From a virus (taxonomy: Duplodnaviria > Caudoviricetes): a DNA stretch of 64,000 bases. The notes below the pieces were generated by a model, which saw nothing but the letters and a program-made list of their open reading frames with translations, had not been told where the DNA came from and did no database searches. Position 1 is the first letter of the stretch; every line of letters begins with the position of its first letter. Where the stretch lies: the IMG/VR virus record IMGVR_UViG_3300021425_002620; one strand, written 5' to 3'. Shown one piece after another: positions 3,835-19,730 of this stretch. The position numbers were made by a program, and so were the translations under genes.

Positions 3835-4814
3835 TTAGGATACCTCGCTTGTAAAGGTTGTGCATATTGTGCGGCATTGTCTGCAATACGTTGCATATCC
3901 CACTTAGCACAAAACTTCATTAAACGCATACCAACCTGCGAAATATCTTTAGGTTCAACACTTGAAATAGTACTGTCAATTATTTCTCTAATTTCAGCAG
4001 GTTGTGCTGACAAATCACAAAGAGTAACATTACGAGTGTAGTCGTCTAGCACTCGATGTTCTACACCTTCATGATCAGTCCAACGCTGTAACATCATGTT
4101 ATTCCAATTAAAGCCTTTATTGTCTTTATCTTCAAATGCTTCTATAAGACCAACCTTGTTTTTTGTACCTTTTTTACGTACACCTGGATATGCACTGAAT
4201 ACATTATCACTGGTGTCACCACGCATACATTTTTCAAATAGCATAAATTCAGGATTAGGTGCAGGTTTTACTTCTTTAGTTTTTTTATCTACAACAGGCT
4301 TACCTTTGTCATCAAAGTAGCCTTCGTGTGTAATAGTTGTATTAGATACACCATTATACTGTTTAACATTAGGTGCAATAAGTTGTGCAAAGTCACCATC
4401 GGTACTAATAATAACATGATTGTCATTAGGATGTGCTTGCACCCAACCTGCAATCAAATCATCTGCTTCTAGTTGCGGATGACGCATCATTGTACAGTTA
4501 GTCTTAGAGCCAATAAAGTCTTTAAACTCGTCAAAGATCTCCCAAAACACAGTATCTTCTTCTTGCTGTGCAGGAGTCATTGCATCACGAGTTTCTTGTC
4601 GATTGCGCTTGTATGGCTCATAATAGTCCTTGCGCCAACTACGACCTTCTAAACAAAACACAACATGATCTGCACTAAAGTCAGTCCATGCCTTTTTAAC
4701 ACTGTTTAGTGTGATATGTAGTGCCATACCAACTTTAGTATCAATGTCACCACGTACTACGTGACGAGCTCTAAAGAAAGTATTAGCAGTGTCTACAAGT
4801 ATATATGTACTCAT
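3831..4814 (-). CDS. rnh: T4 RNase H-like 5'-3' exonuclease (FEN family)
   Basis: ILVDTAN, EADDLIA, ISTDGDFAQL and GDTSDN acidic motifs. Confidence 0.88.
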   Translation of the reverse strand: MSTYILVDTANTFFRARHVVRGDIDTKVGMALHITLNSVKKAWTDFSADHVVFCLEGRSWRKDYYEPYKRNRQETRDAMTPAQQEEDTVFWEIFDEFKDFIGSKTNCTMMRHPQLEADDLIAGWVQAHPNDNHVIISTDGDFAQLIAPNVKQYNGVSNTTITHEGYFDDKGKPVVDKKTKEVKPAPNPEFMLFEKCMRGDTSDNVFSAYPGVRKKGTKNKVGLIEAFEDKDNKGFNWNNMMLQRWTDHEGVEHRVLDDYTRNVTLCDLSAQPAEIREIIDSTISSVEPKDISQVGMRLMKFCAKWDMQRIADNAAQYAQPLQARYPK

Positions 4815-5603: not shown

Positions 5604-5719
5604 AGTCCTGCCTCCCTAGCTCTTGTTTCTAAAGTATCAACAACACGAGCTTGTTTAGATTTATTTTCTTGTCTTTCGAAGTCATCTGGATCGAAAGCAT
5701 TTTCAAGTCCCCCATGCAT
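5600..5719 (-). CDS. small hypothetical protein (39 aa)
   Basis: MHGGLENAFDPDDFERQ...EAGL. Tail of track ORF 5600..6121; starts inside the end of queE and fills the gap. Confidence 0.5.
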   Translation of the reverse strand: MHGGLENAFDPDDFERQENKSKQARVVDTLETRAREAGL

Positions 5720-6599
5720 TTCCGAATAAGGAGATGTGGAGTCTCGGGGTAAAACGCCATCCTTTTTCCATGCATAACTCTGCGACTTCTTGGACGTTGA
5801 GATTGTATTCTTCACTACGTCCGCCCAGCGGCATACAGTAGACCGGACATTCAATTCCGGCACTTTTATATTCGTCAACAGCTCTGCCAACTTCTGCAAC
5901 GTCAGTTGCATCAGCGACAACAAACTTAAGATAAATGTCACTACCATTAATGCCGAAATACTCACTAGCAATGTCAGGCTTAATAGCAGTATCCCAAGGT
6001 TCTCCGCTAACTGAAAGTTTTGGGGAACAACTCCAAGTGACTTCAAATCTGTCTTGATTGCTAAGATAATCTTTGAAATCTTCTCGTAACTTTTGAGTAG
6101 TATTTGTTTCAAATGTAACATTTTTCAAATCCTGCATCTTAGGATGCTCAAATAAATCGATGTAGAGTTTTTGCCAACCTAGCAAAGGCTCTCCACCTGT
6201 TAGTATTAAGTGAACATCTTGACCATTGTCCATTGTCCACTTGCCTTCTGGTGTAAGACTAAGTAAGTGTTCAACTACTTCGTCTACAGTTTTATCCATC
6301 ATAAACTTTTTAAATTCAGGATAGATACTTGCATAAGTATCACAACCTGTATGTATGATAGGTAAATCGTCAAACTTTTCAACAGTATTAATTATATTAC
6401 TATCGAGCAAATCTTTTACTTCAGGATTATGTTTGATACCTTGTTTTTGTTTCTCATCACGCATAGGCTCATCACGACCTAAACCAAAGTTCATGCAACG
6501 AAAGTTACAACCAAATGTTCTTAAGAACACACTAGGGACTCCAACAAACTTGCCTTCACCCTGTACACTATAAAATGCTTCTGAATAACGTAACTTCAT
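5703..6599 (-). CDS. queE: 7-carboxy-7-deazaguanine synthase (radical SAM)
   Basis: YSEAFYSVQGEG, FLRTFGC, LTGGEPLL, ETN, SPKL and PRLHI motifs. Start set at MKLRYS, 1 nt after the folE stop. Confidence 0.92.
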   Translation of the reverse strand: MKLRYSEAFYSVQGEGKFVGVPSVFLRTFGCNFRCMNFGLGRDEPMRDEKQKQGIKHNPEVKDLLDSNIINTVEKFDDLPIIHTGCDTYASIYPEFKKFMMDKTVDEVVEHLLSLTPEGKWTMDNGQDVHLILTGGEPLLGWQKLYIDLFEHPKMQDLKNVTFETNTTQKLREDFKDYLSNQDRFEVTWSCSPKLSVSGEPWDTAIKPDIASEYFGINGSDIYLKFVVADATDVAEVGRAVDEYKSAGIECPVYCMPLGGRSEEYNLNVQEVAELCMEKGWRFTPRLHISLFGNAWGT

Positions 6600-6600
6600 C

Positions 6601-7284
6601 TTAACACGCAAATTCCTGTTGTAATTTAATATTATCCATAAATTCTTTTTTAGTACCTGGATCAATCTTAAATGCACCTTTTAGCACAGTTGTCTGTGTA
6701 AGACTACTATGCGCCATAATACCGCGATTCTCACAACAACCGTGTGTTGCTTGAATGTATACACCTAAGTGATCTGCACCAGTTGCTCGTTGAATTTCAC
6801 GTGCAATATCATTTGCAAGTTCTTCTTGCAGTGTGCCACGTCTAGCACACCATTGTGCAATACGAGTATACTTTGAAAGACCAATTAATTTAGGACCTGC
6901 AATAATACCAATATATGCTACACCTGATACTGGTTGGTGATGATGTGAACACATACTCTTTAGTTCACTTCGAACTACAAGCATACCTTCATAGCGTTCG
7001 TCTGAATCATTTGGAAATGCTGTTGCACTTGGGATAGGGTCATAACGTCCTGCCATAATTTCATTAAAATACATTTTAGCAAGACGTTTTGCTGTACCTT
7101 TTGAATTAGGATCGTTATGTCGATCAATTAGTAATGTATCAAGAACTGTTTCAAATGCTGTTGTTGCTTCTTCAATTAGTTCTTCTTTATCACCTTTTTG
7201 TAGGACTTCTGAAATATTGTCGCCAGCCCAGTAGCGAATTTTTGCGTCTTCGAGACGTGCCTTAATTTGTTTGCTCTTACTCAT
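6601..7284 (-). CDS. folE: GTP cyclohydrolase I
   Basis: SMCSHH, GLSKYTRI, QEEL and HGCCENRG zinc/T-fold motifs. Confidence 0.95.
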   Translation of the reverse strand: MSKSKQIKARLEDAKIRYWAGDNISEVLQKGDKEELIEEATTAFETVLDTLLIDRHNDPNSKGTAKRLAKMYFNEIMAGRYDPIPSATAFPNDSDERYEGMLVVRSELKSMCSHHHQPVSGVAYIGIIAGPKLIGLSKYTRIAQWCARRGTLQEELANDIAREIQRATGADHLGVYIQATHGCCENRGIMAHSSLTQTTVLKGAFKIDPGTKKEFMDNIKLQQEFAC

Positions 7285-7345
7285 TTTTATCTCCGATGTT
7301 TAGGCAGTGGATTGCCGTGTATACTGCAAGCAATTCATTATATAC

Positions 7346-7374
7346 AGTATACACTTATTTAGGTTTTTTGTCAA
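7346..7374 (-). promoter_or_regulatory. sigma70-type promoter for folE-queE
   Basis: TTGACA-17-TATACT. Confidence 0.75.
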
Positions 7375-7376
7375 CC

Positions 7377-7535
7377 TTAAAGTTGTTTTCTTGCTGCTTT
7401 TTTGCGGGCTTCTTCTTTCTCCCACTTTTGGCGGTTTGTCCATTCAACTTTTTTCTTTTGATATTCTTCTTCGCTTAATGAATGCCAACCAATGCATTTA
7501 CCAGTTGGCGATCTTTTACAGCCACATAAAGCCAT
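7377..7535 (-). CDS. CDGSH-like iron-sulfur microprotein (52 aa)
   Basis: Not in the track. Manual translation MALCGCKRSPTGKCIGWHSLSEEEYQKKK...; TAGGAG SD; 3Cys-1His pattern CxC-x2-S-x4-C-x-G-x-H. Confidence 0.7.
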   Translation of the reverse strand: MALCGCKRSPTGKCIGWHSLSEEEYQKKKVEWTNRQKWEKEEARKKAARKQL

Positions 7536-7547
7536 GATGTTCTCCTA

Positions 7548-7754
7548 TTAACTAAAATATTTGTCTAGCATTTCTAGACGATCATTGGCCGCAGCCATAG
7601 AATCCAATTCTTTTTGAATTGTTTCAATGATATCAGAATGTTCACCAATACCGACAACTTTTTGCATATACACTTCGATATTAGTTTTGTGCAATTCAAT
7701 CTCCGCCTCTGCGTGTTTCCTTGCTGCTCCGATCATTTGTTCTCTCAAATCCAT
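7548..7754 (-). CDS. hypothetical protein (68 aa)
   Basis: MDLREQMIGAARKH...; AAGGAAAGG SD; start trimmed from the track. Confidence 0.75.
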   Translation of the reverse strand: MDLREQMIGAARKHAEAEIELHKTNIEVYMQKVVGIGEHSDIIETIQKELDSMAAANDRLEMLDKYFS

Positions 7755-7764
7755 TTTCCTTTCC

Positions 7765-8136
7765 TTAGTATTTTTGTTTAGATGGAATGACGCCCCTAAC
7801 GCCGCCTTTCGGATCTTCCATATCTCCATCACGACGGAAGATTAAATGTACATGGGGATACATGCATGTCTGTCCAGCACTTACTCCCATATTTATGCCT
7901 ATATTGTACCCGTCAACGTTGTTATCGGCTTCTATATTTTGTTGACCCATAGCAAGTGCAAATTTAAAACATTTAAGTATTTCGTCTTGTGTTGCTTCTT
8001 TTGGAACTACAAGTGTATGACCTTCTGTTACAGGGTAGATATCTTCATAAACAACAAAGTCACGAGTGTCTAACATAACATTAGTCCAAGGCGCACGACC
8101 TTCTTCTTGGGCTTTATCTAATGTATCAGTAGTCAT
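7765..8136 (-). CDS. HIT-family nucleotide hydrolase
   Basis: DIYPVTEGHTLVVPK, GYNIGIN and GQTCMYPHVHLI; the first triad His is replaced by Tyr. Confidence 0.85.
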   Translation of the reverse strand: MTTDTLDKAQEEGRAPWTNVMLDTRDFVVYEDIYPVTEGHTLVVPKEATQDEILKCFKFALAMGQQNIEADNNVDGYNIGINMGVSAGQTCMYPHVHLIFRRDGDMEDPKGGVRGVIPSKQKY

Positions 8137-8395
8137 AATCTGCATCGTCTTCAAAGTCTCCCATTTCAACTTTTGATGCTTCCCATAATTCTAATACAGT
8201 TCTTAGTCCATATTGCATAACGGAAAACTCGTTTAATTCTTCTTGAAATTTTCGAACTTCGTCAATTTGTTCTTTTGATAGATCGTCAATTAAATCAACA
8301 TTATAAAATTCACAAATATATTCTTCACAACTACGAAGGATATCGTCTTCAATATTAGTTTCCCATTTATGAATTCGATCCCAATTAAATGACAT
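8126..8395 (-). CDS. hypothetical acidic protein
   Basis: 89 aa ORF in operon order. Confidence 0.7.
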   Translation of the reverse strand: MSFNWDRIHKWETNIEDDILRSCEEYICEFYNVDLIDDLSKEQIDEVRKFQEELNEFSVMQYGLRTVLELWEASKVEMGDFEDDADYDY

Positions 8396-8595
8396 TATTT
8401 TACCTCCAACAACGGTTCAATAGTAGAAGTATCGTGCCAATCATAAATTGATTCATCTTGGTACTGATGTCTTCTACTATGTGTTTCTTTAACAAACATA
8501 CCGTCTCTTTTGCGATAAACAGTATATACTTCTTTTATAATTCCTTCTTTTTCTGCTTGTACAGCATCTTTAAAAGGTCCTTCTTTTTGTGTCAT
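8395..8595 (-). CDS. hypothetical protein (66 aa)
   Basis: Start MTQKEG with ATGA overlap on the PRTase stop. Confidence 0.65.
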   Translation of the reverse strand: MTQKEGPFKDAVQAEKEGIIKEVYTVYRKRDGMFVKETHSRRHQYQDESIYDWHDTSTIEPLLEVK

Positions 8596-9146
8596 TGTCC
8601 TACATTCTCCCATGGATATACAAGCCAAACATCCTCTTCGGCTTTATTTACTTCGTCAACACTATAGTCTATAGTGCCTTTGAATTCGCTTGATAAATTA
8701 TCAGTAAGAACAGCAAAGCGAACATTACGATGCCACACAGTGTCCCATGCACTTGTTTCTTGCGGCAGACAACTACTAGGCCAATCTTCTTTGATCCAAT
8801 TTAATGTTGCACCTGTGTCATTAATATCGTCTACAATAAGAATGTTTTTGCGTTTGTTTAGATCCCATCGGCTTTTATAAATTTCACGTTCTTCTTCGTC
8901 AACGTAACCAAACGCATCATCTGCCATCCAACAGTTAGTTTCACATTCGCTATCATCGTCACGCAAACTAATTTTTAATGCTTCGCAACGTACACCTAAC
9001 ATATGTGATAAAATTGTAGCAGGTACGTTACCACCACGTGTAATACCTACTATATAATCAGGCCGCCAATTATCATTATACATTTGAAGAGCAATATTTA
9101 AACATGCTCGTTCTACATCTTGCCAACTATAATATTTTTTATTCAC
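8592..9146 (-). CDS. type I phosphoribosyltransferase (xanthine/guanine PRTase-like)
   Basis: VGITRGG loop and PRPP motif ILIVDDINDTGATL; probable GTG start overlapping the upstream stop. Confidence 0.88.
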   Translation of the reverse strand: MNKKYYSWQDVERACLNIALQMYNDNWRPDYIVGITRGGNVPATILSHMLGVRCEALKISLRDDDSECETNCWMADDAFGYVDEEEREIYKSRWDLNKRKNILIVDDINDTGATLNWIKEDWPSSCLPQETSAWDTVWHRNVRFAVLTDNLSSEFKGTIDYSVDEVNKAEEDVWLVYPWENVGQ

Positions 9147-9654
9147 TTTTTGCACCTCTTGCTAAGTATTCTTCGTTATGTATCCAACGGTATCCTGCAT
9201 CAGTAATGTCTTCTACTTTTGATGCATGTACAAACCGCATAAAACCCCATTCCTTTTGTTTACGTCCCATAAAGAACAAACTCCAACAAGGAATTTCGTT
9301 ACCGTTAGAATCTTTTTGTAATTCTAACCAATGTAAATCATCTGGCTTACGAAAGCGAAAATGTCCAGGACCTCTCCAAACGCTAGTAGAACCTACAACA
9401 ATACCTTCTTTTGAAACAACAGGTACGTGTTCCCAATAACCGCCCTTAATAATAAAAGTAGCATAACTCCAAGGATGATCATGTAGTGTAGGTTCATCAC
9501 TCTTTAAAACTTTATGTAATGTGATATTAAACGGAAAATTTTTTCTATCTTTTAGAAATACATAAAACCTTATTAGATAAGGTTCTGTACTATCGCGTTC
9601 TGTAATTACTCGACGTCTGCCAAGTTTGTCCATAAGTTTAGAAAGGAATGTCAT
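9139..9654 (-). CDS. metal-binding cupin / putative dioxygenase
   Basis: LHDHPW...GGYWE...LHWLEL pattern of His-ligand cupins. Confidence 0.7.
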   Translation of the reverse strand: MTFLSKLMDKLGRRRVITERDSTEPYLIRFYVFLKDRKNFPFNITLHKVLKSDEPTLHDHPWSYATFIIKGGYWEHVPVVSKEGIVVGSTSVWRGPGHFRFRKPDDLHWLELQKDSNGNEIPCWSLFFMGRKQKEWGFMRFVHASKVEDITDAGYRWIHNEEYLARGAKSE

Positions 9655-9994
9655 CGTCTAAGCCTCTTTCTTTTTGTTTACCTTTATAGTCTTGTAATAC
9701 CATATCATACACGCTTTTAAAATTGCGCCATACTTTTTCTAGTGCTGGATACTCATTACACATATCTTCAACTTGATCTGGATTAATATTTTTAGTAGTA
9801 TTGATACTAAAAGTATAATCGGATGATCCAGTCCACAAACCATCGTCAATGATAAATGAACTATCAAATGATTTATCATCAACAGTGGTAATAGTAATAT
9901 TACTTAAATCAATATCGTCAGATGTAATATCAATAGCAGTACTTACAACACTGTCACCCATATCAAGCCATATATCTTTGTTGGATTTGCTCAT
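9638..9994 (-). CDS. hypothetical protein
   Basis: 118 aa ORF; acidic low-complexity N-half, helical C-half. Confidence 0.65.
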   Translation of the reverse strand: MSKSNKDIWLDMGDSVVSTAIDITSDDIDLSNITITTVDDKSFDSSFIIDDGLWTGSSDYTFSINTTKNINPDQVEDMCNEYPALEKVWRNFKSVYDMVLQDYKGKQKERGLDDDIPF

Positions 9995-11018
9995 ACAATG
10001 CCTTTCCGCTAAAAAATTCTTTGTTTAAAAGAGTACGTTGCTTATCCAAACTTACAAGATAATCATCATAGTTTTCTATATAGTCTCTAATTTTATTAAC
10101 AATCTCACCTCGATATTGTCTATAAGAGTTCCAATCTTCTGTCCACTTACTTGGATATTTAAATTCCGGTAATGCCATTTCACCGTAGCTCAATCTATCA
10201 GGTACTACAGGAATAGCATCTACTAGTGCGCCTTCGTACCAACTAATACCAAGTGTTTCTTGTAAGTTAGCACTAAAAACTATTTTTGCTTCGCCTAATA
10301 GATTGTGATATTCGTTTTTAGTAAGTTCACGTTCTTGACAAACTACAAATTCGTAGTCAGGTAATTGTTCTGCTAGATCACGAAAAATATCTACTTGCTT
10401 CTCAGGTGCGATGCGATGCGGAAAGAGTATAAGATTTCGCTTGTCCATGCCTTTGTATTGATCTAAACTATTGCGTAGATACTCCATAGGCCATCCTACA
10501 CGATGTGTTTTATCGTCATCGATGTCTAAACTTTCTGCAAACAAGTCTATATGAAAGTCTGTAGCATAAAAGTTATCGTCATAGCACTCATACATACTTT
10601 GTTCAGCATGACGTACCCAAGGTTTATCACCTATTAGTCTACCTAAAAAATCATGAGGATCATAACTGCCAGCATGCCATAGACCGCCCACTCCAATGTC
10701 AACGCCCAGTAGCTCAGCCATGTAGCGAAGTTGGATAACAGTCGGGTTCCATGCATCTGTATATAGGAAATAATCTCCATCTTTAATTTGTCCTTTGCAA
10801 AACATTTCGCCTATAGTTTCTAATTGTTTAGACTTATAAACATTTGTACCGCCGAAGTTAAGAAAAGCCCCAGGTGTTGTAGCCTGAGGCGTTTCTCCAC
10901 CACTGATGACAGTTACATCTTCATTCGTAGCTCGTTGCAATTGACGTGGAAGATGTTCTTTCCACTGTTTTGTGTAACGTGTGTCAACTGCTTCAATGTC
11001 TACAATGTAAATAGTCAT
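9963..11018 (-). CDS. GT-B fold glycosyltransferase (GT4-like)
   Basis: ILFPHRIAPEKQ, then AKIVFSANLQETLGISWYEGALVDAIPVVPDRLSY, matching the GT4 E-x7-E donor-binding segment. Confidence 0.82.
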   Translation of the reverse strand: MTIYIVDIEAVDTRYTKQWKEHLPRQLQRATNEDVTVISGGETPQATTPGAFLNFGGTNVYKSKQLETIGEMFCKGQIKDGDYFLYTDAWNPTVIQLRYMAELLGVDIGVGGLWHAGSYDPHDFLGRLIGDKPWVRHAEQSMYECYDDNFYATDFHIDLFAESLDIDDDKTHRVGWPMEYLRNSLDQYKGMDKRNLILFPHRIAPEKQVDIFRDLAEQLPDYEFVVCQERELTKNEYHNLLGEAKIVFSANLQETLGISWYEGALVDAIPVVPDRLSYGEMALPEFKYPSKWTEDWNSYRQYRGEIVNKIRDYIENYDDYLVSLDKQRTLLNKEFFSGKALYEQIQQRYMA

Positions 11019-11224
11019 TAGTTTCTCCGTGAATTTATATTCCTACCAGCATTACGTGCTTTAGCACGTAAGTAGTTTTGGTGTTTTTGATACGCCTGCC
11101 AAACAGGTGCATCTTTCTTATAAAGGTCTGCTTCATTGAAGACCTTACCTTCAAAGCGACAGTAGTCGCGAAACTTGTCCAAGTCGTCAAATACCTTATT
11201 GACAGGAGGGAAGTTATTAGCCAT
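11018..11224 (-). CDS. hypothetical protein
   Basis: 68 aa ORF with TAATG coupling. Confidence 0.7.
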   Translation of the reverse strand: MANNFPPVNKVFDDLDKFRDYCRFEGKVFNEADLYKKDAPVWQAYQKHQNYLRAKARNAGRNINSRRN

Positions 11225-11238
11225 TTTGAATTTCTCAC

Positions 11239-11691
11239 TTATGCCTTTGGATAAAAAATGGAACAGCCGTTTTCGTTGTCTTCAGCGACACTAATCTCTA
11301 CAAATCGGCCGGGGTACTTTGTAGAAATCTCTTGATACAAGTCATCTGCAATCATCTCACACGACTTGTGATTTAACTCTAGTACGCCTTCGACGTCATA
11401 GAGTCGTTGCATCCAGCGTTTAAACTGAATGAATTCAATATCGCGATCGTTATGAAATACTTCAATACGAACACGAAAGTGAAAGATATGACGATGCGGG
11501 ATACCAAGGAATGATACATCATCCCAATCGCCAGTTGCTAGTTTAGGATCAGTGTCAGCACCTGGGTACATATGTACACCTTCTTTGCTAAAGGTTACCC
11601 AAATACTACGTTCTGCGTTTTTCATTATGTCTTTCATACTTTCTTCTTTTAATCTACGACCCATATAGTTGTGATAGGATTCACGTTGCAT
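11239..11691 (-). CDS. dpdL: QueD-paralog T-fold protein, DpdL-like (predicted CDG decarboxylase)
   Basis: LGIPHRHIF (LxxxHRHxF, as recalled for DpdL) instead of the QueD CxxxHGH; SCEMIA and VAEDNENG align with QueD strands; sits in the deazaguanine cluster. Confidence 0.65.
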   Translation of the reverse strand: MQRESYHNYMGRRLKEESMKDIMKNAERSIWVTFSKEGVHMYPGADTDPKLATGDWDDVSFLGIPHRHIFHFRVRIEVFHNDRDIEFIQFKRWMQRLYDVEGVLELNHKSCEMIADDLYQEISTKYPGRFVEISVAEDNENGCSIFYPKA

Positions 11692-11698
11692 TGTTTAT

Positions 11699-11727
11699 AG
11701 TATACTTTCATTTAATAACTTTGTCAA
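11699..11727 (-). promoter_or_regulatory. sigma70-type promoter
   Basis: TTGACA-17-TATACT inside the 3' end of the upstream gene; ATG lies 7 nt after the -10. Confidence 0.7.
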
Positions 11728-12241
11728 GGCCATATTTCGTCCAATCTGTGAATTTTTCTCTATCCATTAGATCGTGCAAACTATGACACCAAACACCTGG
11801 GTTAGTTGCCTTAAAGTCTACATCGTCAATTTTGACCATTGCGTTGTAATTCCACAGTTTTGTGTAAGGCAATGGAACACGGATTTGTGGAATAAAGTTA
11901 TCTCGTTCGTTAAAACCACCGTCATGAAAAGTATCACAAGCATCAAGTGGAATATCAAGTGTACAAAGAACGTCTTTGTCTAGGAAGTAATAGATCATTT
12001 CTTCCCACTTCTTGTAATAATCGTATTCACTTTTATTTGATGCCTTAGGATTAAAACTGTGATTAGCACCAAAGAAGATGTGTTCACACTGTTCTTTTTC
12101 GTACCAAAATTCAATTTCATCTACAGGTTGTACATCTGTAACAAACAATGTACGCATACCGTAAGCAGGAGTCTTTTCAACTTCTATACCAGTAAAGAAG
12201 ATGATATTATCTGCTTCGCCTGTTTCGTAATCTCTTTTCAT
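11708..12241 (-). CDS. hypothetical protein between dpdA and dpdL-like genes
   Basis: 177 aa globular alpha/beta-looking ORF; no motif recognised. Confidence 0.8.
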   Translation of the reverse strand: MKRDYETGEADNIIFFTGIEVEKTPAYGMRTLFVTDVQPVDEIEFWYEKEQCEHIFFGANHSFNPKASNKSEYDYYKKWEEMIYYFLDKDVLCTLDIPLDACDTFHDGGFNERDNFIPQIRVPLPYTKLWNYNAMVKIDDVDFKATNPGVWCHSLHDLMDREKFTDWTKYGLDKVIK

Positions 12242-12242
12242 A

Positions 12243-12518
12243 TCACACCTTATCGTGCATGTCAGGATTTGCTTTTAATTGTTCTATTTGATCTAAAATA
12301 GATTCTTTATGTTTTTGATAGATAGGAATATGTCTAGGGTCAGCAGCTTCTCTTGCACCACTTAACACTTTTTCACATTCTTCAAGAGCATCATTCAAAC
12401 TATCCATGCGTATTTCATACGGTGATCTTTCTTCCTGCATTGGAGGAATTTTACTAAACTGATATTCTTTATATGTATCAGCATCTGAATGATATTTTCG
12501 ATTTTTAAAATCACTCAT
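12243..12518 (-). CDS. hypothetical protein
   Basis: 91 aa ORF with TAATG coupling. Confidence 0.7.
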   Translation of the reverse strand: MSDFKNRKYHSDADTYKEYQFSKIPPMQEERSPYEIRMDSLNDALEECEKVLSGAREAADPRHIPIYQKHKESILDQIEQLKANPDMHDKV

Positions 12519-12721
12519 TATCTTAACTCCTTTAGTTCACTTTCTAGCCTATGTATTTCATCTTTAAACCAAAGTTTTTTAGTTTTTAAGCGATTAATTT
12601 CTGAATCGCTTGCAAACTTATTATACAACTCTTTTACTTCGTCGTCAAGTTTTCTATGCTTTTGATAAAGCTCTTGTAGATAGTTTGCCAATTTATTGTG
12701 TTTCTCCGTAAAGTTGCTCAT
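12518..12721 (-). CDS. DUF465/YdcH-like coiled-coil protein
   Basis: HRKLDDEV...LKTKKLWFKDEI pattern. Confidence 0.7.
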   Translation of the reverse strand: MSNFTEKHNKLANYLQELYQKHRKLDDEVKELYNKFASDSEINRLKTKKLWFKDEIHRLESELKELR

Positions 12722-14252
12722 CTTCTAATACCTCTAGATTGTGTTCTTCTTCTTCGGTAAAGGTTCCATCTTCGTGTTCATCAGTTTCAGGCTCTGATAC
12801 TTCAAACAAAGCATTAAACTGTGTACTTGCATTAACAGTCTTTTTACCTACAGCACCCCTTGTACCGGGTATAGCCATCCAAAATTTGCTATATTGATCA
12901 ATAAGTGCTAGGGCTTCTTCTTTGTTGTCAATAGCAAATATTTCTTCCACAACATCTCTAAATAAAACCCGGTCAAAGCGTTCTTGGACAAGCATTGCTG
13001 GAATGACTCCATTGTCGTATTGTCTATTTGCTTCTTGTACTGCATTTACATGACTCCATACGTTATGACCCATTTGGATCGCATAAGAAAAACTATCCCA
13101 TGATGTTTTTCCTTCTTTACCAATTTTATTTAAGTCTCCTGGAGCATAAGTGCAAACGTCCGATACTTTGAGTTCGGCAGTGAGAGGACTGTCTTCAAAG
13201 TTTTTAAATATCCCATCTGATATAACAGCATCTCTAAAGAGACGGTTGTCTGTAGCATATTTTTTATCGTCAACACTCGGCACCATTCGATATGTCCATT
13301 TCGACCTATCCTCAGTTTCGTTTTGTATGTATATCTGTCCATTTGCGGTTGCGAGAAAAGGACTAGCACAATCAAAAGTAATAGTAAAGTTTTCATTATA
13401 ATTTTTTCGTACTGCACGTTGAATATCAGTAAGCAAACATGCCCACTCTAATTTACTTGTACCCAAGAAGTGCATAACATCATGTATGCCTTTTTGCAAC
13501 AAGTTATCAAAATGTAACGTAACAATGCGTTTAAGAACTAGATGTACATCGCACATGTTCTGTCCACCCATTGCCCAGCCATTAAAGTGATTGTCTGGAT
13601 ATTTTGCAGGATCGCAGTAATCTTTCATTTGTTCATACCAGTCATCTGCTTCTGCATGGTTTTCGCCTTGTAAAACATTTAAGAATTTACAAGCACCAGT
13701 TCTATGCTTCATCCAGTAATCATTATTAATACGTGTACCTTCTACAGCTTCTTGATAAGTGGTAATGCCAGTTGCTTCTTGTCCTGCAGGAGATCTACAA
13801 ACCCAAGCAGGAATATCAAGCACCATACCATAGTCCATGTATGCATCCATCCAGCGTAAAACTTGATCTCTCTTTTTTGCTGCTTTAGGACAGTTAGGAT
13901 TTTTCCAATCACCTTCCCAAACACCCTTACCAATCTGGAAACCACCTGAGTCTCCTAGTATCCAAGAGTTTTGTCTATCTCTATTACGCACCATATCTTC
14001 TTTGGGTGCGTGTTTGTTAATATCAAGTTCTGCATGTCCTGCAGAATACAATGTCCATTGATACTGGAATTGTCCTTCTTGCGTATTTAGATAGTTTAGA
14101 CTTTCAACACCATTTGTAAAGTTGCTAGGAATACGTGACTTATCTACATATTCGTCATAACGCTGTTTACCCACATAAGTTGCATAAAAGCCACTTAGTG
14201 CTGGTAAAAATCTAGCGTAATCATTTTGTGTTGCAGTTAAGTCTTTATTCAT
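12693..14252 (-). CDS. dpdA: TGT-superfamily guanine transglycosylase, DpdA-like
   Basis: GDSGGFQ, VLDIP, VLQG, AMGG, HFLG and FDCASP catalytic/pocket motifs. LDIP and HFLG resemble arcTGT/DpdA rather than bacterial tRNA-Q TGT; no CxCxxC zinc motif seen. Confidence 0.8.
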   Translation of the reverse strand: MNKDLTATQNDYARFLPALSGFYATYVGKQRYDEYVDKSRIPSNFTNGVESLNYLNTQEGQFQYQWTLYSAGHAELDINKHAPKEDMVRNRDRQNSWILGDSGGFQIGKGVWEGDWKNPNCPKAAKKRDQVLRWMDAYMDYGMVLDIPAWVCRSPAGQEATGITTYQEAVEGTRINNDYWMKHRTGACKFLNVLQGENHAEADDWYEQMKDYCDPAKYPDNHFNGWAMGGQNMCDVHLVLKRIVTLHFDNLLQKGIHDVMHFLGTSKLEWACLLTDIQRAVRKNYNENFTITFDCASPFLATANGQIYIQNETEDRSKWTYRMVPSVDDKKYATDNRLFRDAVISDGIFKNFEDSPLTAELKVSDVCTYAPGDLNKIGKEGKTSWDSFSYAIQMGHNVWSHVNAVQEANRQYDNGVIPAMLVQERFDRVLFRDVVEEIFAIDNKEEALALIDQYSKFWMAIPGTRGAVGKKTVNASTQFNALFEVSEPETDEHEDGTFTEEEEHNLEVLEDEQLYGETQ

Positions 14253-14335
14253 TTATTAATTTCCGATACTGCTATTATATAAAAGCCAATTATAATAACG
14301 GCTAATATGCTAATTGCTGTTGCAACTTCGCCCAT
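14249..14335 (-). CDS. single-pass membrane micropeptide (28 aa)
   Basis: MGEVATAISILAVIIIGFYIIAVSEINK; fills the clamp-dpdA gap exactly, with ATGA coupling. Confidence 0.55.
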   Translation of the reverse strand: MGEVATAISILAVIIIGFYIIAVSEINK

Positions 14336-14336
14336 A

Positions 14337-15059
14337 TTACTTACTCTGCGCTGGCAGGATATAGTCATACTTGGCCATACCGCTGTCTACACTAATCATC
14401 ATAGCACCTTGATCTGAAATACTCATAGTTAAATCGCCGTCTAACCCTAAGATTGCTTGTACTTGTGCAACTGGCCAACTCCAAGTATGTTGTAATGTAC
14501 CTTCAACGCCGTGTTGGAAAACAAATTCGCCTGCGTGTGTACTTGCATCACCAAAGCTGAATACTAAACTATTATCTTTAGTTGTTACATTAAATGTTGG
14601 CTCTTCTGAATGTGCCGCACTCATAAGTTTCATACGTCCAATACTAGCCATAGTTGGTGACACTGTAACATTCCATTGAGCACCTTTGAATTTAACAGTT
14701 TTTAATTTTTCATCAATAATTGCTTTGTTCATAAAGCGATAATCGTTTTGAAAGTCGCCTGCTGCGTTCTCAAAGTGAATGTGTGTTGGTACAACTTCGC
14801 CATTACGCTCTGCTGTAACAACTTCAATCTTTGCATTATCTTTGTATTCAGGATTTTTTAAATGTAATGCTAGTTTGTCTAAGTTAGGCATACCAAATGT
14901 AGCATTAGCAATAGTATGACTTGATGTAGCACTTAAAATTACACTGCGATCTTCTGCCATTGAGTCAATTTGAGTACCTTCGTCGTTAGATACTTTTACT
15001 AATGATAGGAAGCCTAGTGCGTGAGTATGTGCTACTACGTCTTGTAATATGTCTTTCAT
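14337..15059 (-). CDS. DNA polymerase sliding clamp (gp45-like)
   Basis: 240 aa, two-domain beta-rich pattern, near the B-family polymerase; clamp loader present at 41079. No diagnostic motif, so inferred partly from context. Confidence 0.6.
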   Translation of the reverse strand: MKDILQDVVAHTHALGFLSLVKVSNDEGTQIDSMAEDRSVILSATSSHTIANATFGMPNLDKLALHLKNPEYKDNAKIEVVTAERNGEVVPTHIHFENAAGDFQNDYRFMNKAIIDEKLKTVKFKGAQWNVTVSPTMASIGRMKLMSAAHSEEPTFNVTTKDNSLVFSFGDASTHAGEFVFQHGVEGTLQHTWSWPVAQVQAILGLDGDLTMSISDQGAMMISVDSGMAKYDYILPAQSK

Positions 15060-15826
15060 GATATAGTTTCTCCATTGAATAAGTTAATTATATTACTATT
15101 TTCTTCGTTTGTCAAGAACTTTTCTACTGTGTATTTAGGTTTAAAGCCTAAGGCCTTTAACTTTTCTGTATCGGCACATGTAAAGTTTCTCTCTCCTGGG
15201 GTATTTAGACGCACTGGAAGATCCGGTGCAAGGTCTTGGATTCGATGCGGAATCCCCGTTCCAATATCGATTGTACCTTTCAAGTAAGTTGCCTTAATTA
15301 AAAGTTCAACAGCATCTAATACATCTTGTAGATGAATAAAATCTCTGTAATGTTTGGTTGTATATTCTAGTGTACCGTCACGCAATCTCTTAAAAAACAT
15401 GTTATCTCTAGGACAGTTATCACTGTATACTGTATGAAATCTCATACCTAATGTATTAGGATAACGTTCTGCAAGTTCTTCTAAACAATACTTAGATGCC
15501 GCATAAGGATTTAAGTCAGGTTCGTATGCACTAGAACTACTAGCATACAATATACGTGTATCTTCGTAGGCTTCAAATAGTCTACGACTTGCTTCTATAT
15601 TATTCATCCAATATGATGCAGGATCTTTTAAACTTTCTCTTACTCCGCTTTTGCCTGCAAGATGGATTACAAGATCTATCTTTTTAGGCCAAGCAGTGTA
15701 GTGTAACAAATCACAGTCTGGACCATCTTTAATATCAATACCAAATACATTATGATTTGCTCTTAGCAATCTAAATTCTAAAGCACTTCCAATAAAGCCT
15801 TTGTGTCCTGTTAATAATATGTTCAT
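15056..15826 (-). CDS. NAD-dependent epimerase/dehydratase (extended SDR)
   Basis: TGHKGFIG, HLAG, SSS and YAASK motifs. Confidence 0.92.
   Translation of the reverse strand: MNILLTGHKGFIGSALEFRLLRANHNVFGIDIKDGPDCDLLHYTAWPKKIDLVIHLAGKSGVRESLKDPASYWMNNIEASRRLFEAYEDTRILYASSSSAYEPDLNPYAASKYCLEELAERYPNTLGMRFHTVYSDNCPRDNMFFKRLRDGTLEYTTKHYRDFIHLQDVLDAVELLIKATYLKGTIDIGTGIPHRIQDLAPDLPVRLNTPGERNFTCADTEKLKALGFKPKYTVEKFLTNEENSNIINLFNGETIS
15087..15115 (-). promoter_or_regulatory. sigma70-type promoter for the clamp-dpdA block
   Basis: TTGACA-17-TATAAT inside the epimerase 3' end. Confidence 0.7.
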
Positions 15827-16530
15827 ATTATATTCTTAAGTATATCCCATGTATCTTTATAATCTTTTACATGAAATAACTCGCCGCCTTTCTCTTTTAC
15901 AACTCTTGACAATGTATAATCATTGCCGTTTTCGTCCATTCTATCTCCAAAGAAGTAAATTTTTGCATCTTCATCGCTAAAATGGCTTATAATTTGTGCT
16001 TTATCTTTACCACGTTGGATAATGTCAATTCCTGTTTCACCACCAACTCTACATTCAATTTGAGGAAATAAATCATTAATAGCATTAGCAATTCGAATAC
16101 GTTCTTGATTTTCTCTATCCCATTTTACATATTCAGCTCTTTGATCTAAATTTGCATTTCTGCCAACTACACTAAAATTACAAAGTCCTGTTCTGTGTTC
16201 AAAGTGTAAGCCTGTTCTTAACGGGAATTTGCTTTCAGTTAATAGAAAAGATAGTGCTTCGTGTACAACTTCTGGCAATACCCAATTACTTTTGTAAATA
16301 TTATTATTACCTTGCCAAACATCATTACCTAAACAGTTATAAACTGTATGACAAGAATTATATATTTCAGGTGTTAGTTGTTCTACTGTTTTTTCTTTGT
16401 CACTTCCAGTAACCAAGTATACTAAATTATGTCGACAAAAAGGTAAAAAATATGAATAGAATCTTTCATCTATACGTTGTCTACTTGGTGTAAGTGTACC
16501 ATCTACATCAAATATAAAATACTGTTTCAT
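15823..16530 (-). CDS. HAD-IIB phosphomannomutase-like enzyme
   Basis: FDVDGTLT, LVTGSD, GGETGIDI and FFGDRMDENGND motifs. Confidence 0.88.
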   Translation of the reverse strand: MKQYFIFDVDGTLTPSRQRIDERFYSYFLPFCRHNLVYLVTGSDKEKTVEQLTPEIYNSCHTVYNCLGNDVWQGNNNIYKSNWVLPEVVHEALSFLLTESKFPLRTGLHFEHRTGLCNFSVVGRNANLDQRAEYVKWDRENQERIRIANAINDLFPQIECRVGGETGIDIIQRGKDKAQIISHFSDEDAKIYFFGDRMDENGNDYTLSRVVKEKGGELFHVKDYKDTWDILKNII

Positions 16531-16943
16531 TTTGTTTCTCTCTTTGTTACACGTGATCTTAAATCGCTTGAACTAAAACGATGATCTCTTTTATTAAAAA
16601 ACAATTCAATATCTCTTTGTCGGCATATATCCTTGCCTGTAAAATCCATATCTCTGTATTCCTCTCCTAGTATTCGTATATCAATATGATACATTTGTAG
16701 TATGTCTTCTAGGTCTTGTTCAGTGCCATATGGAATAATTTCATCTACGTATCCAACTGCTTTTAGTTGTGTATAACGTTCTACAATAGTTTGTATTGGA
16801 GGATTTTTTGACGGTCTATCTACACTAGGATCCATTTGCAATCCTACCATTAAATAGTCACATTGATCTTTTGCGTCACGCAACATTTGTACATGTCCTG
16901 CGTGTAGTAAATCAAAAGTTGAACAAGTAAACCCTACTTTCAT
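16527..16943 (-). CDS. TagD-like cytidylyltransferase (HxGH family)
   Basis: STFDLLHAGHV, VDEII, GEEY and RDHRFSSSDLR motifs. Confidence 0.9.
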   Translation of the reverse strand: MKVGFTCSTFDLLHAGHVQMLRDAKDQCDYLMVGLQMDPSVDRPSKNPPIQTIVERYTQLKAVGYVDEIIPYGTEQDLEDILQMYHIDIRILGEEYRDMDFTGKDICRQRDIELFFNKRDHRFSSSDLRSRVTKRETK

Positions 16944-17057: not shown

Positions 17058-19730
17058 TCAATCTCCAAAGTCAAACAAACTACTAAATGTGTTGTGTTGT
17101 TTAGTATCTTCTAGATCATAATTCAACACACCAATCAAATTATCAAGTTTGTTATCAATAATTGTTTCTGCCATTGCTGCATCATCAAATGGCAATTCTT
17201 TAAACCACTCAGGTAATCTTAGCTCATCTGTTGGATAAGCAACACTTGTATAACCTAAGGGATTCTGTTTTAATTTACAAACAATAACTTTCATACCGTC
17301 AACGATTTCTTGTGAGTATTTGTCACCGTTCATACGTTTTAGTGTATTCCAATTAATGCTTGCCCGCACGTGGCCCGGCATATTTGCCTTGCCTTGTTTT
17401 TGTTCAAGACGCTGATAGTGTCCAATCTTGTTTGCACGTTTAGGCGAACCTTTTTCCCAACCTGGCATCTCTTGAAACTCTTTACGGAACTGTGTAATAC
17501 GTTCTAGTACTTCAGATTCTTCTGCATCTGTAAGCACCATTAAAAGTACTTCGCTTAAAAACTTTTGCATAAACACAGGAGTGTCTGACCTACGTAAGTC
17601 TAAGCCCATTGCCTTTACTTTACCAGGCTTACCGTCTTGATCTGTTCTAAAACCTTCATTGTCAACTACTAGTGCCGCATATCGCTTCTTAGTAATATAA
17701 AGACCACTCTGAGCAACAATTTCTCTACCTGCCGCAATAACGTCACTTCTGCTCTTTGGACAATGAAATGCTTGCAACATAAACTTTTCAAATGTTGTAT
17801 TTGCTTGTTCACAAACTTGATCATATAGTGCAATACATTTTTCAGTATTCCATTCAAGTTTACCAGTTCCTACGTCTTCCTGTAGTACAGGCCATGCACT
17901 AAAGTAAACAGAGTCAGTGTCGCCATATATTACTGCTTTACCGGTATGATCGTAATCACCTGTAATTACATTGTTAACTTCAGCACTCATATGTTTAACA
18001 ATTTGTCTACCAGTTAGTGTAGTTGACTGACCAATACGTTTATCGAAAAATCTACAGCCCGGATTCAAAATAGCACCATACAAGCTGTTCAAGTTAATCT
18101 TTTTAACTAACTGTCGCTTGTCCCAGTATTCTATTTCTGCATCAAGATTTGCGTCTTTTGCTTTTTTAAGTTTCTTTTGTAGTTCTTTACGTTCTGCGTA
18201 CCAGCGTTTAAGAATACCCGGAATAACACCTTCAAACTCTGTAGTAAAGATTGTACCATTTGCACTAAGCATCCAAGGCATCTGACTGTCAAATATAAGT
18301 TGATAAATCTCTGCACCACTTAGTACATCTGATCTACCATCCTCCCAATCAACAGTTAGCGCAACATCTTTACGTTGCTCCATTACTGCTTCATATTCTT
18401 CAGTTGAAAATCGTCCTTCCCAACTACCTGCGAAGCTCTTCTTCTTAAGAGTCATATCTTCGTGTACACGAGATTCAGTTATTTCAGGACGTATTTGTCC
18501 AACAATAGTTTCCGGTGCCATATTTAAAGCACGAATCACTGAAGGATATAGTGAGTTTAAGTCCATTGAACCAATCCACTTGTGCAGTCCTTTTTTTGGA
18601 AATGCAACATATGCTCCAGCAGCCTGTGTATTTTCTGTGTCGTCACGTTTGGGGCGATTAGGAACCTGTAGTCCTCTGTTATGTGCTTCGTTAATAATAC
18701 CTTGCTCTGTAACGGCAACAGCACCCATTGTTGTTTGAAGCATCACAGTATTTTCGTGTGCAATACTGTTACTAAGATCAATAAATCGTAGTTTCTTGTC
18801 TAGTTTGTCCAGTAGTGCAGTATCCTGAATGTTATATTCAATAAACTTACGGAAGTCGTTGTTATATAACTGATCCAGCGTACCTTCATATGGCACTTTG
18901 TTTTCGCCTACTTCAATCTCACCAATCGCATCTAATCGATATGAGTGACGTTCTTCATATGTATACTTACGATACAGTTCTAATGAGTCTAAGTGTACAC
19001 GACCTACTAAATCAAATGTAACTGCTTGCTTCCCATATTTTTCGTATTCACGCTTCTTAGGCAGTTGTCCCCATAGGCAAAACCGCCTTGTGTCATCTTT
19101 ACTGAGTACACGACTAGTTCTGTTTACAGTATACGGAATATCATAACCTTCACTGTTCCAACCACTTAGTATGTCAGCATCTTCAATTAGCGTTAAGAAG
19201 GTATCAATCATATCACCTTCACGTTCAAACAACATTACATTATCAATGCCTTCTAATTCTTTTTGTGCCTGATCCATAGTTAGTGTTTTAGGAGGAACAG
19301 CAAGACACACCATTGTTTCTAACCACTGCAAATACACAGAGATAGATGTAATTGGCATAAAAGGATCGCTTGGATCAGCAAAGCCACGCTCTGGATCAAA
19401 GTCAGTCTCAATATCGAAAAATGCAATATTTAGTTTAGGTGCATCTTGGTTAAGATAGTTTTCACTAAGACATTGAAAAAGTGGATTGATGTCGCTTTCG
19501 AATAAGTTCTTGCCTTTGTTAATAGCAACTTCTTTTCGAAAGTCTTTTGTGTTTTTACAAACAATACGTGATAGAGGATCTCCGTAAATACTTTTGTATT
19601 TGCCTCGAGGATCTTCGTAATAAAATGTATATTTGGCAGGATATTCTGTAAAGTGTCTTTTGCCATCGCGTCTTTCTACAACACGAATAATATCCTGATC
19701 GCGATCGAACATCGCATCTACGTATGGCAT
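17058..19730 (-). CDS. family B DNA polymerase (T4 gp43-like)
   Basis: Exo DIETD, NSEGYD and YNIQD; Pol DLNSLYPS, KINLNSLYG and YGDTDS. Confidence 0.97.
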   Translation of the reverse strand: MPYVDAMFDRDQDIIRVVERRDGKRHFTEYPAKYTFYYEDPRGKYKSIYGDPLSRIVCKNTKDFRKEVAINKGKNLFESDINPLFQCLSENYLNQDAPKLNIAFFDIETDFDPERGFADPSDPFMPITSISVYLQWLETMVCLAVPPKTLTMDQAQKELEGIDNVMLFEREGDMIDTFLTLIEDADILSGWNSEGYDIPYTVNRTSRVLSKDDTRRFCLWGQLPKKREYEKYGKQAVTFDLVGRVHLDSLELYRKYTYEERHSYRLDAIGEIEVGENKVPYEGTLDQLYNNDFRKFIEYNIQDTALLDKLDKKLRFIDLSNSIAHENTVMLQTTMGAVAVTEQGIINEAHNRGLQVPNRPKRDDTENTQAAGAYVAFPKKGLHKWIGSMDLNSLYPSVIRALNMAPETIVGQIRPEITESRVHEDMTLKKKSFAGSWEGRFSTEEYEAVMEQRKDVALTVDWEDGRSDVLSGAEIYQLIFDSQMPWMLSANGTIFTTEFEGVIPGILKRWYAERKELQKKLKKAKDANLDAEIEYWDKRQLVKKINLNSLYGAILNPGCRFFDKRIGQSTTLTGRQIVKHMSAEVNNVITGDYDHTGKAVIYGDTDSVYFSAWPVLQEDVGTGKLEWNTEKCIALYDQVCEQANTTFEKFMLQAFHCPKSRSDVIAAGREIVAQSGLYITKKRYAALVVDNEGFRTDQDGKPGKVKAMGLDLRRSDTPVFMQKFLSEVLLMVLTDAEESEVLERITQFRKEFQEMPGWEKGSPKRANKIGHYQRLEQKQGKANMPGHVRASINWNTLKRMNGDKYSQEIVDGMKVIVCKLKQNPLGYTSVAYPTDELRLPEWFKELPFDDAAMAETIIDNKLDNLIGVLNYDLEDTKQHNTFSSLFDFGD

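Follow-up and report, generated by a model that had tools for sequence, protein, structure and literature searches.

T-even phages glucosylate or arabinosylate 5-hydroxymethylcytosine (hmC) by means of the GT-B enzymes AGT and BGT, which use a nucleoside-diphosphate (NDP) sugar, and in eukaryotic tRNA mannose or galactose is carried on the cyclopentenediol hydroxyl of queuosine. To our knowledge, every base known to bear a sugar in DNA is a pyrimidine: hmC with glucose or arabinose, base J, or a glycosylated derivative of 5-hydroxymethyluracil (hmU). Guanine is altered differently in the Cellulophaga phage phiST, which encodes FolE, QueD, QueE, DpdL and DpdA3 and no glycosyltransferase (GT); there, all G is replaced by 2'-deoxy-7-deazaguanine (dDG) (Hutinet et al. 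2023, PMC10516641). The same study found a DpdA in every 7-deazaguanine virus and argued for insertion of the base after replication; when dpdL and dpdA of phage ACP17 were expressed alone in E. coli, dDG did not form, and the authors considered that further enzymes may be required. In this report, we examine a locus in a 64,000-nucleotide stretch of a Caudoviricetes virus (IMG/VR record IMGVR_UViG_3300021425_002620), hereafter "the window". In this locus, a GT gene lies among genes for a DpdL, a DpdA-like transglycosylase and the 7-deazaguanine enzymes FolE and QueE. On the strength of gene content and linkage, we lean somewhat toward the view that it is a phage 7-deazaguanine DNA-modification system extended by a GT. 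The GT, DpdL and DpdA appear from their linkage to be its conserved unit, with three sugar-nucleotide genes as a lineage-specific addition. An earlier note on this DNA knew of no sugar-bearing deazaguanine in DNA, and a literature search likewise found no paper describing one.

Comparison with described systems

The window shares with phiST its FolE and QueE, a DpdL with the motif LxxxHRHxF, the lack of QueC and QueF, and a divergent enzyme resembling tRNA-guanine transglycosylase (TGT) beside the replication genes. However, phiST has no GT homolog and carries bare dDG, its DpdL (CGPG_00067) is just 30.6% identical to that of the window (tblastn, E 4e-6), and no jackhmmer link joins its DpdA3 to the 519-residue DpdA-like protein of the window. 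To the phiST gene set the window adds the GT, a 177-residue protein (p177), a phosphoribosyltransferase (PRTase), a cupin, a HIT-family protein and the sugar-nucleotide genes.

The closest cultured relative at the protein level is the Pseudomonas jumbo phage PA5oct (Wroclawvirus); when the block was compared by megablast with 50,697 phage records, no match at the level of near-identical DNA came up. The window protein is seen on contigs of up to 253 kb. The PA5oct block is syntenic over the DNA polymerase, p240, DpdA (36% identity), GT (45%), DpdL (57%), QueE (30%) and RNase H (50%), but is without the sugar trio, PRTase, cupin and HIT protein. The two phages probably share their modification chemistry. 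In the passages of a preprint that concern PA5oct, its DNA resists several restriction enzymes and is attacked by END nucleases, which target only hypermodified phage genomes (PMC12191111). Those passages derive a modified G of undefined chemistry from the QueE and 6-pyruvoyltetrahydropterin synthase (PTPS) genes, the only modification genes that they name (PMC12191111); our term search of the preprint did not extend to the GT.

Glycosylation of a 7-deazaguanine scaffold is known outside DNA. HuiG, a GT with a PF13439 domain, places N-acetylglucosamine (GlcNAc) on the 2-amino group of a free 7-deazapurine base (PMC7439116; bioRxiv 2026.04.15.718813). As in our proposal for the window, the scaffold of huimycin and dapiramicin derives from FolE, QueD and QueE and is glycosylated, with UDP-GlcNAc; N2 can evidently accept a sugar. 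Those compounds, in contrast, are soluble actinomycete metabolites built on preQ0, which needs QueC, and their clusters by definition lack dpdA. Glycosylated queuosine offers a case in which a 7-deazaguanine derivative receives a sugar when already in nucleic acid, but the substrate is RNA and the route needs QueA/QueG-type chemistry, absent from the window system. The T-even phages provide the closest logic: a non-canonical base is made first and is then decorated on DNA by a GT-B enzyme, and the sugar varies between lineages under restriction pressure. Their target is a pyrimidine with a hydroxyl acceptor, whereas that of the window GT would be a hydroxyl-free purine analogue.

Linkage of the GT with DpdL and DpdA

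The earlier note had asked whether homologs of this GT occur beside deazaguanine genes across phages. For the survey, 157 IMG/VR loci were fetched with two GT alignments, of close and of distant homologs; loci from cultured phages and three distant representatives were also taken in. Genes neighboring the GT were classified by iterative profile search. At least 6 kb lies on either side of the GT in 81 loci. All 81 have DpdL within 6 kb of the GT and a DpdA-type gene in the locus, a count that overstates independence, as many of the loci come from related phages. FolE (75/81) and the cupin (35/81; missing at PA5oct and ACP17) were counted within the same distance, and the QueE, PRTase and HIT genes are present in 66, 53 and 28 of these loci. 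The gap between the GT and dpdL has a median of 250 nt and is at most 1.5 kb in 153 of 162 loci. Of the outcomes that the note listed as speaking against its reading, among them GT homologs mostly lacking deazaguanine neighbors, none was seen.

The association is kept in phages that differ greatly in type, with at least six arrangements of the genes and with DpdA proteins from two subfamilies. PA5oct and a marine clade have DpdA-(p177)-DpdL-GT, and Acidovorax phage ACP17 has QueD-FolE-p177-DpdA-GT-DpdL-QueE. The order GT-TGT-x-QueE is found in Xanthomonas phage BUDD and Burkholderia phage BCSR5, DpdL-GT-x-FolE in phage Phosso, and DpdL-GT-DpdA-p177 in two environmental loci (L111 and L168). 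Small phages of about 50-110 kb have QueD-QueE-FolE-DpdL-radical SAM-GT-DpdA-clamp-Pol, with a DpdA of the phrog_887 type (2e-41). Two of the distant representatives (L093 and L094) also keep the GT linkage.

The sole GT match away from dpdL is a remote homolog that has GlmS and a BshB-like deacetylase as its neighbors, in Xanthomonas phages of the PhiXhv type. PhiXhv-15 was considered as a member of the GT family without deazaguanine genes, and was not accepted as a clear counter-example: the match has only 27% identity over 61% of the query. This phage encodes QueE, FolE and PTPS far from the GT homolog, and no DpdL.

The converse arrangement, DpdL without a GT, is seen among others in phiST, in phages related to it, in RHph_I1_18 and in Ahp1. 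Since phiST has DpdL, no GT and plain dDG, the GT looks like an add-on to the dDG pathway; on this genomic evidence, it extends the DpdL branch, to which it is dedicated, but is not a necessary part of it.

A further gene was observed in this part of the module. In 16 loci of smaller phages with the phrog_887-type DpdA, a second radical S-adenosylmethionine (SAM) protein of 430-460 residues, unrelated to QueE, is encoded between dpdL and the GT (e.g., L100:8634-10004, L101:8349-9647 and L109:8622-10004). It may elaborate the base further before glycosylation.

The glycosyltransferase

The sequence of the window GT has no match in Pfam, PHROG, NCBIfam or the sequences of the Protein Data Bank (PDB). 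The Pfam models Glycos_transf_1 and Glyco_transf_4 leave it unmatched, and a faint PF00534 match is found only in a distant homolog (P0268). The prediction of a GT-B enzyme in the earlier note nonetheless held: an AlphaFold2 (AF2) model built on an alignment of 50 diverse homologs is of high confidence (predicted local distance difference test, pLDDT, 96.3; predicted template modeling score 0.93) and has the two Rossmann-like domains of the GT-B architecture. With this model, Foldseek finds BshA, MshA, GlgM, PglA and PimA at E 1e-11 to 1e-8 and template modeling (TM) scores of 0.6-0.7; 2-deoxystreptamine GTs and a tetrahydrobiopterin glucosyltransferase (9v0l) are also near. T4 AGT and BGT are absent among the 50 PDB matches listed.

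Among the same 50 homologs (27-53% identity), the EX7E motif has its exact spacing, with E254 at least 90% conserved and E262 invariant. R202 and K207, which we take to be equivalent to the R/K pair of PimA and MshA that binds the NDP diphosphate, are also at least 90% conserved. Further, E[TS]xGx4E is matched by 158 of 169 GT homologs from the loci. Membership in GT-B/GT4 is thus a matter of predicted fold and motif, not of sequence-family models. Because the fold and the residues of the EX7E motif, R202 and K207 are kept down to 27% identity, the protein should be an active NDP-sugar transferase. The family is large: clustered at 90% identity, it makes up at least 8000 groups, and at 50% identity 1209.

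DpdL

The small protein encoded next to the GT had been called a QueD paralog. Its motif, LGIPHRHIF, fits LxxxHRHxF, which separates DpdL from QueD (CxxxHGH) (Hutinet et al. 2023, PMC10516641). The DpdL motif is found in 162 of the 165 family members collected, and the QueD motif in none. Searches of Pfam, PHROG, NCBIfam and PDB sequences with this protein gave nothing useful. Its genomic context includes FolE, QueE and DpdA; canonical QueD and QueC were not detected in the window by phmmer with five phage QueD/PTPS queries and the PAPS-reductase-family protein of BUDD, the latter chosen as a possible QueC-like PP-loop enzyme. DpdL is the proposed decarboxylase of 7-carboxy-7-deazaguanine (CDG), an activity that is putative even for the phiST and ACP17 proteins (PMC10516641). 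A predicted complex of the GT with DpdL scored 0.00, which counts neither way.

The DpdA-like transglycosylase and p177

The 519-residue protein, described earlier as DpdA-like, matches nothing in Pfam, PHROG or PDB sequences, including PF01702, PF23859 and phrog_887. It retains the catalytic motifs of TGT and DpdA, in the form DSGGFQ, LDIP, LQG, GWAMGG, HFLGT and FDCA; in 26 homologs, D101-S-G-G-x-Q106, D146, Q195-G196, G229-G230 and F293-D294 are invariant or nearly so. By hhalign, it aligns with the ACP17 dpdA product (E 2.4e-4, probability 44%) and with E. coli Tgt (E 0.003, probability 10%), the latter over IIQG, GYAVGG and MFDCV and thus spanning the nucleophile motif FDCV. Profile comparison gave no signal against the BUDD TGT or phrog_887-type DpdA. 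However, jackhmmer unites the protein, the ACP17 dpdA product and the "queuine tRNA-ribosyltransferase" of BUDD in one family, and its nearest neighbors in a protein language model are TGT (0.94) and the DpdA family PF23859 (0.89). It is on account of these transitive links and language-model neighbors that we accept the protein as a divergent DpdA-type transglycosylase of the TGT superfamily.

The retained Asp146 is presumably the TGT residue that reads the N1/N2 edge of the base. If so, an N2-glycosylated base could not be a substrate of DpdA; an N2 glycosylation would therefore occur on DNA, whereas a C7-linked sugar could precede insertion.

The p177 gene always accompanies the DpdA subfamily of the window; in 65 of the 81 loci it lies no more than 6 kb from the GT, and ACP17 has it too. 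The protein is confidently modeled (AF2 pLDDT 87) and shows no obvious cysteine triad of the radical SAM type. Pfam, PHROG, NCBIfam and PDB-sequence searches gave nothing useful, no convincing known fold emerged from Foldseek searches of the PDB, VIA wide, AFDB clusters and the ESM Atlas, and an hhalign comparison with phiST CGPG_00066 gave no signal. A weak likeness to the partial barrel of QueE recurs in two libraries (Z 5.6, 5.5 and 4.9; TM 0.57-0.58), which we offer as a lead only.

Sugar supply

The nucleotidyltransferase, phosphomannomutase-like (PMM) and epimerase genes precede the deazaguanine genes, and the earlier note had made them part of its reading of a sugar-decorated deazaguanine. 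That reading gains genomic support from the linkage of the GT with DpdL and DpdA, but the trio does not stand as a conserved part: it is complete only in the three closest loci (L003-L005). Of 169 GT loci, 17 have a homolog of the nucleotidyltransferase, whose place within the module varies; epimerase homologs are found in 20-22 GT loci, where they either adjoin the polymerase or come immediately behind the GT, and a PMM-like gene in only four related loci. The best NCBIfam matches are RfaE domain II (5e-19) and TagD (1e-16) for the nucleotidyltransferase, both far below cut-off, and ADP-heptose 6-epimerase (1e-13, below cut-off) for the epimerase. By its sequence, the nucleotidyltransferase is a candidate maker of an NDP-sugar or CDP-polyol donor.

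Elsewhere, the module between Pol-p240 and QueE-RNase H often holds other genes for sugar or polyol nucleotides; at least one sugar-nucleotide gene lies within the module in 82 of 157 loci, in at least six combinations. A UDP-glucose/GDP-mannose dehydrogenase-like gene is found in 41 loci, and in 38 loci a GFO/IDH/MocA oxidoreductase and a partner resembling zinc-dependent alcohol dehydrogenase (ADH) stand between dpdA and p177 (e.g., L006:6274-7997), often adjoined by a small nucleotidyltransferase. This set looks like a compact cassette for an oxidized or reduced NDP-sugar or CDP-polyol. One distant representative (L094) has a dTDP-sugar isomerase and a UDP-GlcNAc 2-epimerase. A PIG-L/LmbE-type de-N-acetylase lies near the GT homolog in BCSR5 (L090:6812-7519, two genes away) and in PhiXhv-15 (L087:7189-7797), a pairing that resembles BshA-BshB and MshA-MshB and hints, by analogy, at UDP-GlcNAc as the donor in these two lineages and at a later deacetylation of the sugar. 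Such a mosaic of sugar genes would be expected from one conserved transferase whose donor sugar is being varied.

Proposed pathway

In the pathway that we propose, FolE, by family assignment, would convert GTP to 7,8-dihydroneopterin triphosphate (H2NTP). A QueD encoded elsewhere, by phage or host, would make 6-carboxy-5,6,7,8-tetrahydropterin (CPH4); a remote or host QueD is plausible, as FolE and two PTPS genes of PA5oct lie about 55 kb from its GT locus. QueE would then make CDG, and DpdL would process it, perhaps by the decarboxylation to 7-deazaguanine, the base of phiST DNA, that the literature has proposed. The DpdA-like enzyme, probably with p177, would swap guanine in the phage DNA for the deazapurine. 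Finally, the GT4-type enzyme would move a sugar from an NDP-sugar onto the deazaguanine, either once this base is in DNA or while it is still free; the acceptor atom might be N2, as in huimycin, or C7, C8 or O6. A glycosylated 7-deazaguanine would then be present in the DNA of mature virions. The sugar donor would vary by lineage, coming here from the phage's own trio and in others from cassettes of MocA, ADH or UDP-glucose dehydrogenase type, or, as the deacetylase near the BCSR5 GT suggests, from UDP-GlcNAc. That the sugar ends on a DNA base is what we infer from the gene identities, established by fold and motif, and from the linkage.

The PRTase would return the excised guanine to GMP and then GTP, and so supply FolE. 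It resembles xanthine/guanine PRTases. PRTase and FolE are joined in single proteins in two loci (L113:7298-8296 and L106:4767-5678; PF01227 at about 1e-69, PF00156 weak), with the PRTase-like part at the N-terminus and the GTP cyclohydrolase I at the C-terminus, and these fusions make salvage of DpdA-released guanine the most likely role of the enzyme. The clusters of PA5oct, ACP17, BUDD and BCSR5 are without the PRTase, HIT and cupin genes.

Alternative explanations

The most serious competing explanation, which we nonetheless consider unlikely, is that the GT has a small molecule in free form as its substrate, be it 7-deazaguanine, CDG or a pterin intermediate, that its product is either a short-lived intermediate of the biosynthesis or a soluble glycoside like huimycin, and that the DNA ends with plain dDG or its 7-carboxy form, dCDG. 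The closest folds (BshA, MshA, GlgM, the 2-deoxystreptamine GTs and 9v0l) agree with such a role, as does the precedent of HuiG, and DpdL, the tightest neighbor of the GT, is itself predicted to act on a free base. A DNA transglycosylase of DpdA type is nevertheless found in every fully flanked locus, and the module always lies within replication genes. Further, a soluble glycoside is of no obvious use to a phage, and phiST, which has no GT, reaches dDG without any such step.

Glycosylation could instead take place on nucleotides. ToyH and TubE, PRTases of toyocamycin and tubercidin synthesis, convert a deazapurine base to its ribonucleotide; the PRTase of the window might do likewise, with the GT and HIT protein acting on nucleotides and the polymerase inserting a modified dNTP. 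A purine-type PRTase and a HIT protein in one block are what this route would need, and the PRTase recurs in the 53 loci counted above. Guanine recycling to GTP is a better fit to the PRTase-FolE fusions, and it is made the likelier by PA5oct, ACP17, BUDD and BCSR5, whose clusters keep the GT, DpdL and DpdA with neither the PRTase nor the HIT gene. These points, together with the presence of DpdA in every 7-deazaguanine virus and the case for post-replicative insertion (Hutinet 2023, PMC10516641), leave the nucleotide-level route very improbable. We give the least credence of all to a GT that is unrelated to deazaguanine and merely syntenic, with a protein, the cell envelope or a base such as hmC or hmU as its target. 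Some homologs are indeed named "glycosyltransferase involved in cell wall biosynthesis" by the Joint Genome Institute, and the remote PhiXhv-15 homolog has its GlmS and BshB-like deacetylase beside it and QueE and FolE far away. But the adjacency to DpdL and DpdA holds over six or more gene orders, over both DpdA subfamilies and in phages of quite dissimilar kinds, and no member of the GT family closer than that outlier was found without DpdL. No pyrimidine hydroxymethylase was noticed in the family searches of the block or in cultured-phage annotations, although no search was dedicated to one.

Several observations weigh against a sugar-bearing deazaguanine in DNA. No GT-bearing phage is among those measured by Hutinet 2023, and the support is genomic. 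The nearest structural neighbors of the GT act on small molecules, not DNA. As 7-deazaguanine has no hydroxyl, only N2, O6 or a ring carbon could accept the sugar, which is unusual for a retaining GT4 enzyme. The GT and DpdA are acidic (isoelectric point, pI, 4.8-4.9), so that nothing in their charge points to DNA binding; most DpdA proteins are acidic in any case (family median pI 5.7, against 4.9 in the window), and pI is uninformative in this respect. The sugar trio is not conserved, the gene orders that count as independent number about six to seven, and in Phosso the DpdA gene is 172 kb from the GT.

Implications

Taking these points together, we see about an even chance that, in a large set of phages that abound worldwide, guanine gives way to a 7-deazaguanine bearing a sugar, whose donor is diversified by swappable cassettes. 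The set would comprise PA5oct-like jumbo phages, ACP17, the jumbo phages of Xanthomonas and Burkholderia, and viral contigs from marine and fresh waters in the thousands. If this is so, DNA would have its first purine-type base with a sugar, and the 7-deazaguanine series a new branch; the modification would extend to the purine side the arms-race diversification of sugars known from glycosylated hmC in T-even phages. It would explain the G modification of PA5oct, its restriction resistance and its targeting by END nucleases, as well as the failure of dpdL and dpdA alone to reconstitute dDG. It would also bear on PA5oct and Paride as candidates for phage therapy, on the restriction and sequencing behavior of environmental viral DNA, and on enzymatic tools for glyco-labeling of DNA. 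The GT family is very common and is present in cultured phages of P. aeruginosa, Acidovorax, Xanthomonas and Burkholderia, which makes the prediction directly testable.

Genes of the locus

All of the genes named in the earlier note are present and co-oriented on the minus strand, by evidence of family, motif or fold (Table 1). From 19730 down to 3831, every gene is on this strand, and the genes are tightly packed, often with overlaps of 1-32 nt. The order is Pol, nucleotidyltransferase, PMM, epimerase, p240, DpdA-like protein, DUF465 protein, an open reading frame (ORF) of 91 residues, p177, DpdL, p68, GT, p118, cupin, PRTase, small ORFs, HIT, p94, FolE, QueE and, further downstream, RNase H.

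Table 1. Features of the locus, listed in the direction of transcription
Feature	Position	Strand	Basis
DNA polymerase, upstream module boundary	17058..19730	-	52%/49% identity to split PA5oct DNA polymerase
Small HIGH-motif nucleotidyltransferase, cytidylyl/adenylyl-transferase-like	16527..16943	-	PF01467, 4e-14
HAD-IIB phosphomannomutase-like (PMM)	15823..16530	-	PF03332, 1e-23
Short SDR NDP-sugar epimerase/dehydratase	15056..15826	-	PF01370, 1e-24
p240, conserved 240-residue protein between polymerase and DpdA	14337..15059	-	phrog_12062; 37% identity to PA5oct EST35_0314
DpdA-like guanine transglycosylase, 519 residues	12693..14252	-	Motifs, hhalign, jackhmmer
DUF465 small protein, accessory	12518..12721	-	PF04325, 9.5e-11; in 6/80 close loci
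p177, companion of DpdA subfamily	11708..12241	-	Conservation; AF2 pLDDT 87
DpdL (QueD/T-fold paralog), 150 residues	11239..11691	-	LGIPHRHIF motif
p68, small conserved ORF between dpdL and GT	11018..11224	-	In 59/80 close loci; no family match
GT-B/GT4-type glycosyltransferase, 351 residues	9963..11018	-	AF2 fold and motifs
p118, acidic small protein, accessory	9638..9994	-	In 12/80 close loci (tblastn); no significant family match
Metal cupin, accessory	9139..9654	-	phrog_4786, 1.2e-33; HDHPW motif
Purine-type PRTase, accessory	8592..9155	-	PF00156, 5e-14; best NCBIfam match xanthine PRTase, 5.8e-14
HIT-family protein, accessory	7765..8169	-	PF01230, 2.9e-9
FolE, GTP cyclohydrolase I	6601..7284	-	PF01227, 2e-37
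QueE-like radical SAM CDG synthase	5703..6677	-	phrog_2076, 1.4e-50, alignment from residue 24
RNase H, downstream module boundary	3831..4814	-	50% identity to PA5oct RNaseH

The DNA polymerase adjoins the module in 91 related loci. Annotations of p240 homologs disagree: EST35_0314 of PA5oct is a "structural protein" by electrospray ionization tandem mass spectrometry (ESI-MS/MS), whereas the Phosso homolog is called a sliding clamp beta subunit. The position after the polymerase favors a clamp, and p240 is possibly one. The HIT protein has the motif HVHLIF, with the third His missing. The PA5oct protein to which QueE is 30% identical is annotated as "7-carboxy-7-deazaguanine synthase". For queE itself, the ATG at 6599 is probably a likelier start than the GTG at 6677, which overlaps folE by 77 nt. 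A 173-residue ORF at 5600-6121 lies wholly within queE in another frame; it is low in complexity, rich in Leu and Ser and without a family match, and is most likely a shadow ORF.

A short HhH-GPD protein of the EndoIII/Ogg type was also observed within the module in 16 loci (L059:12514-12945 and 15 others); in one of them (L132), its gene is placed between Pol and the epimerase. It is with an inactive EndoIII domain that END nucleases sense hypermodified DNA. The module protein could be a decoy or an anti-defense protein, or a helper in base exchange.

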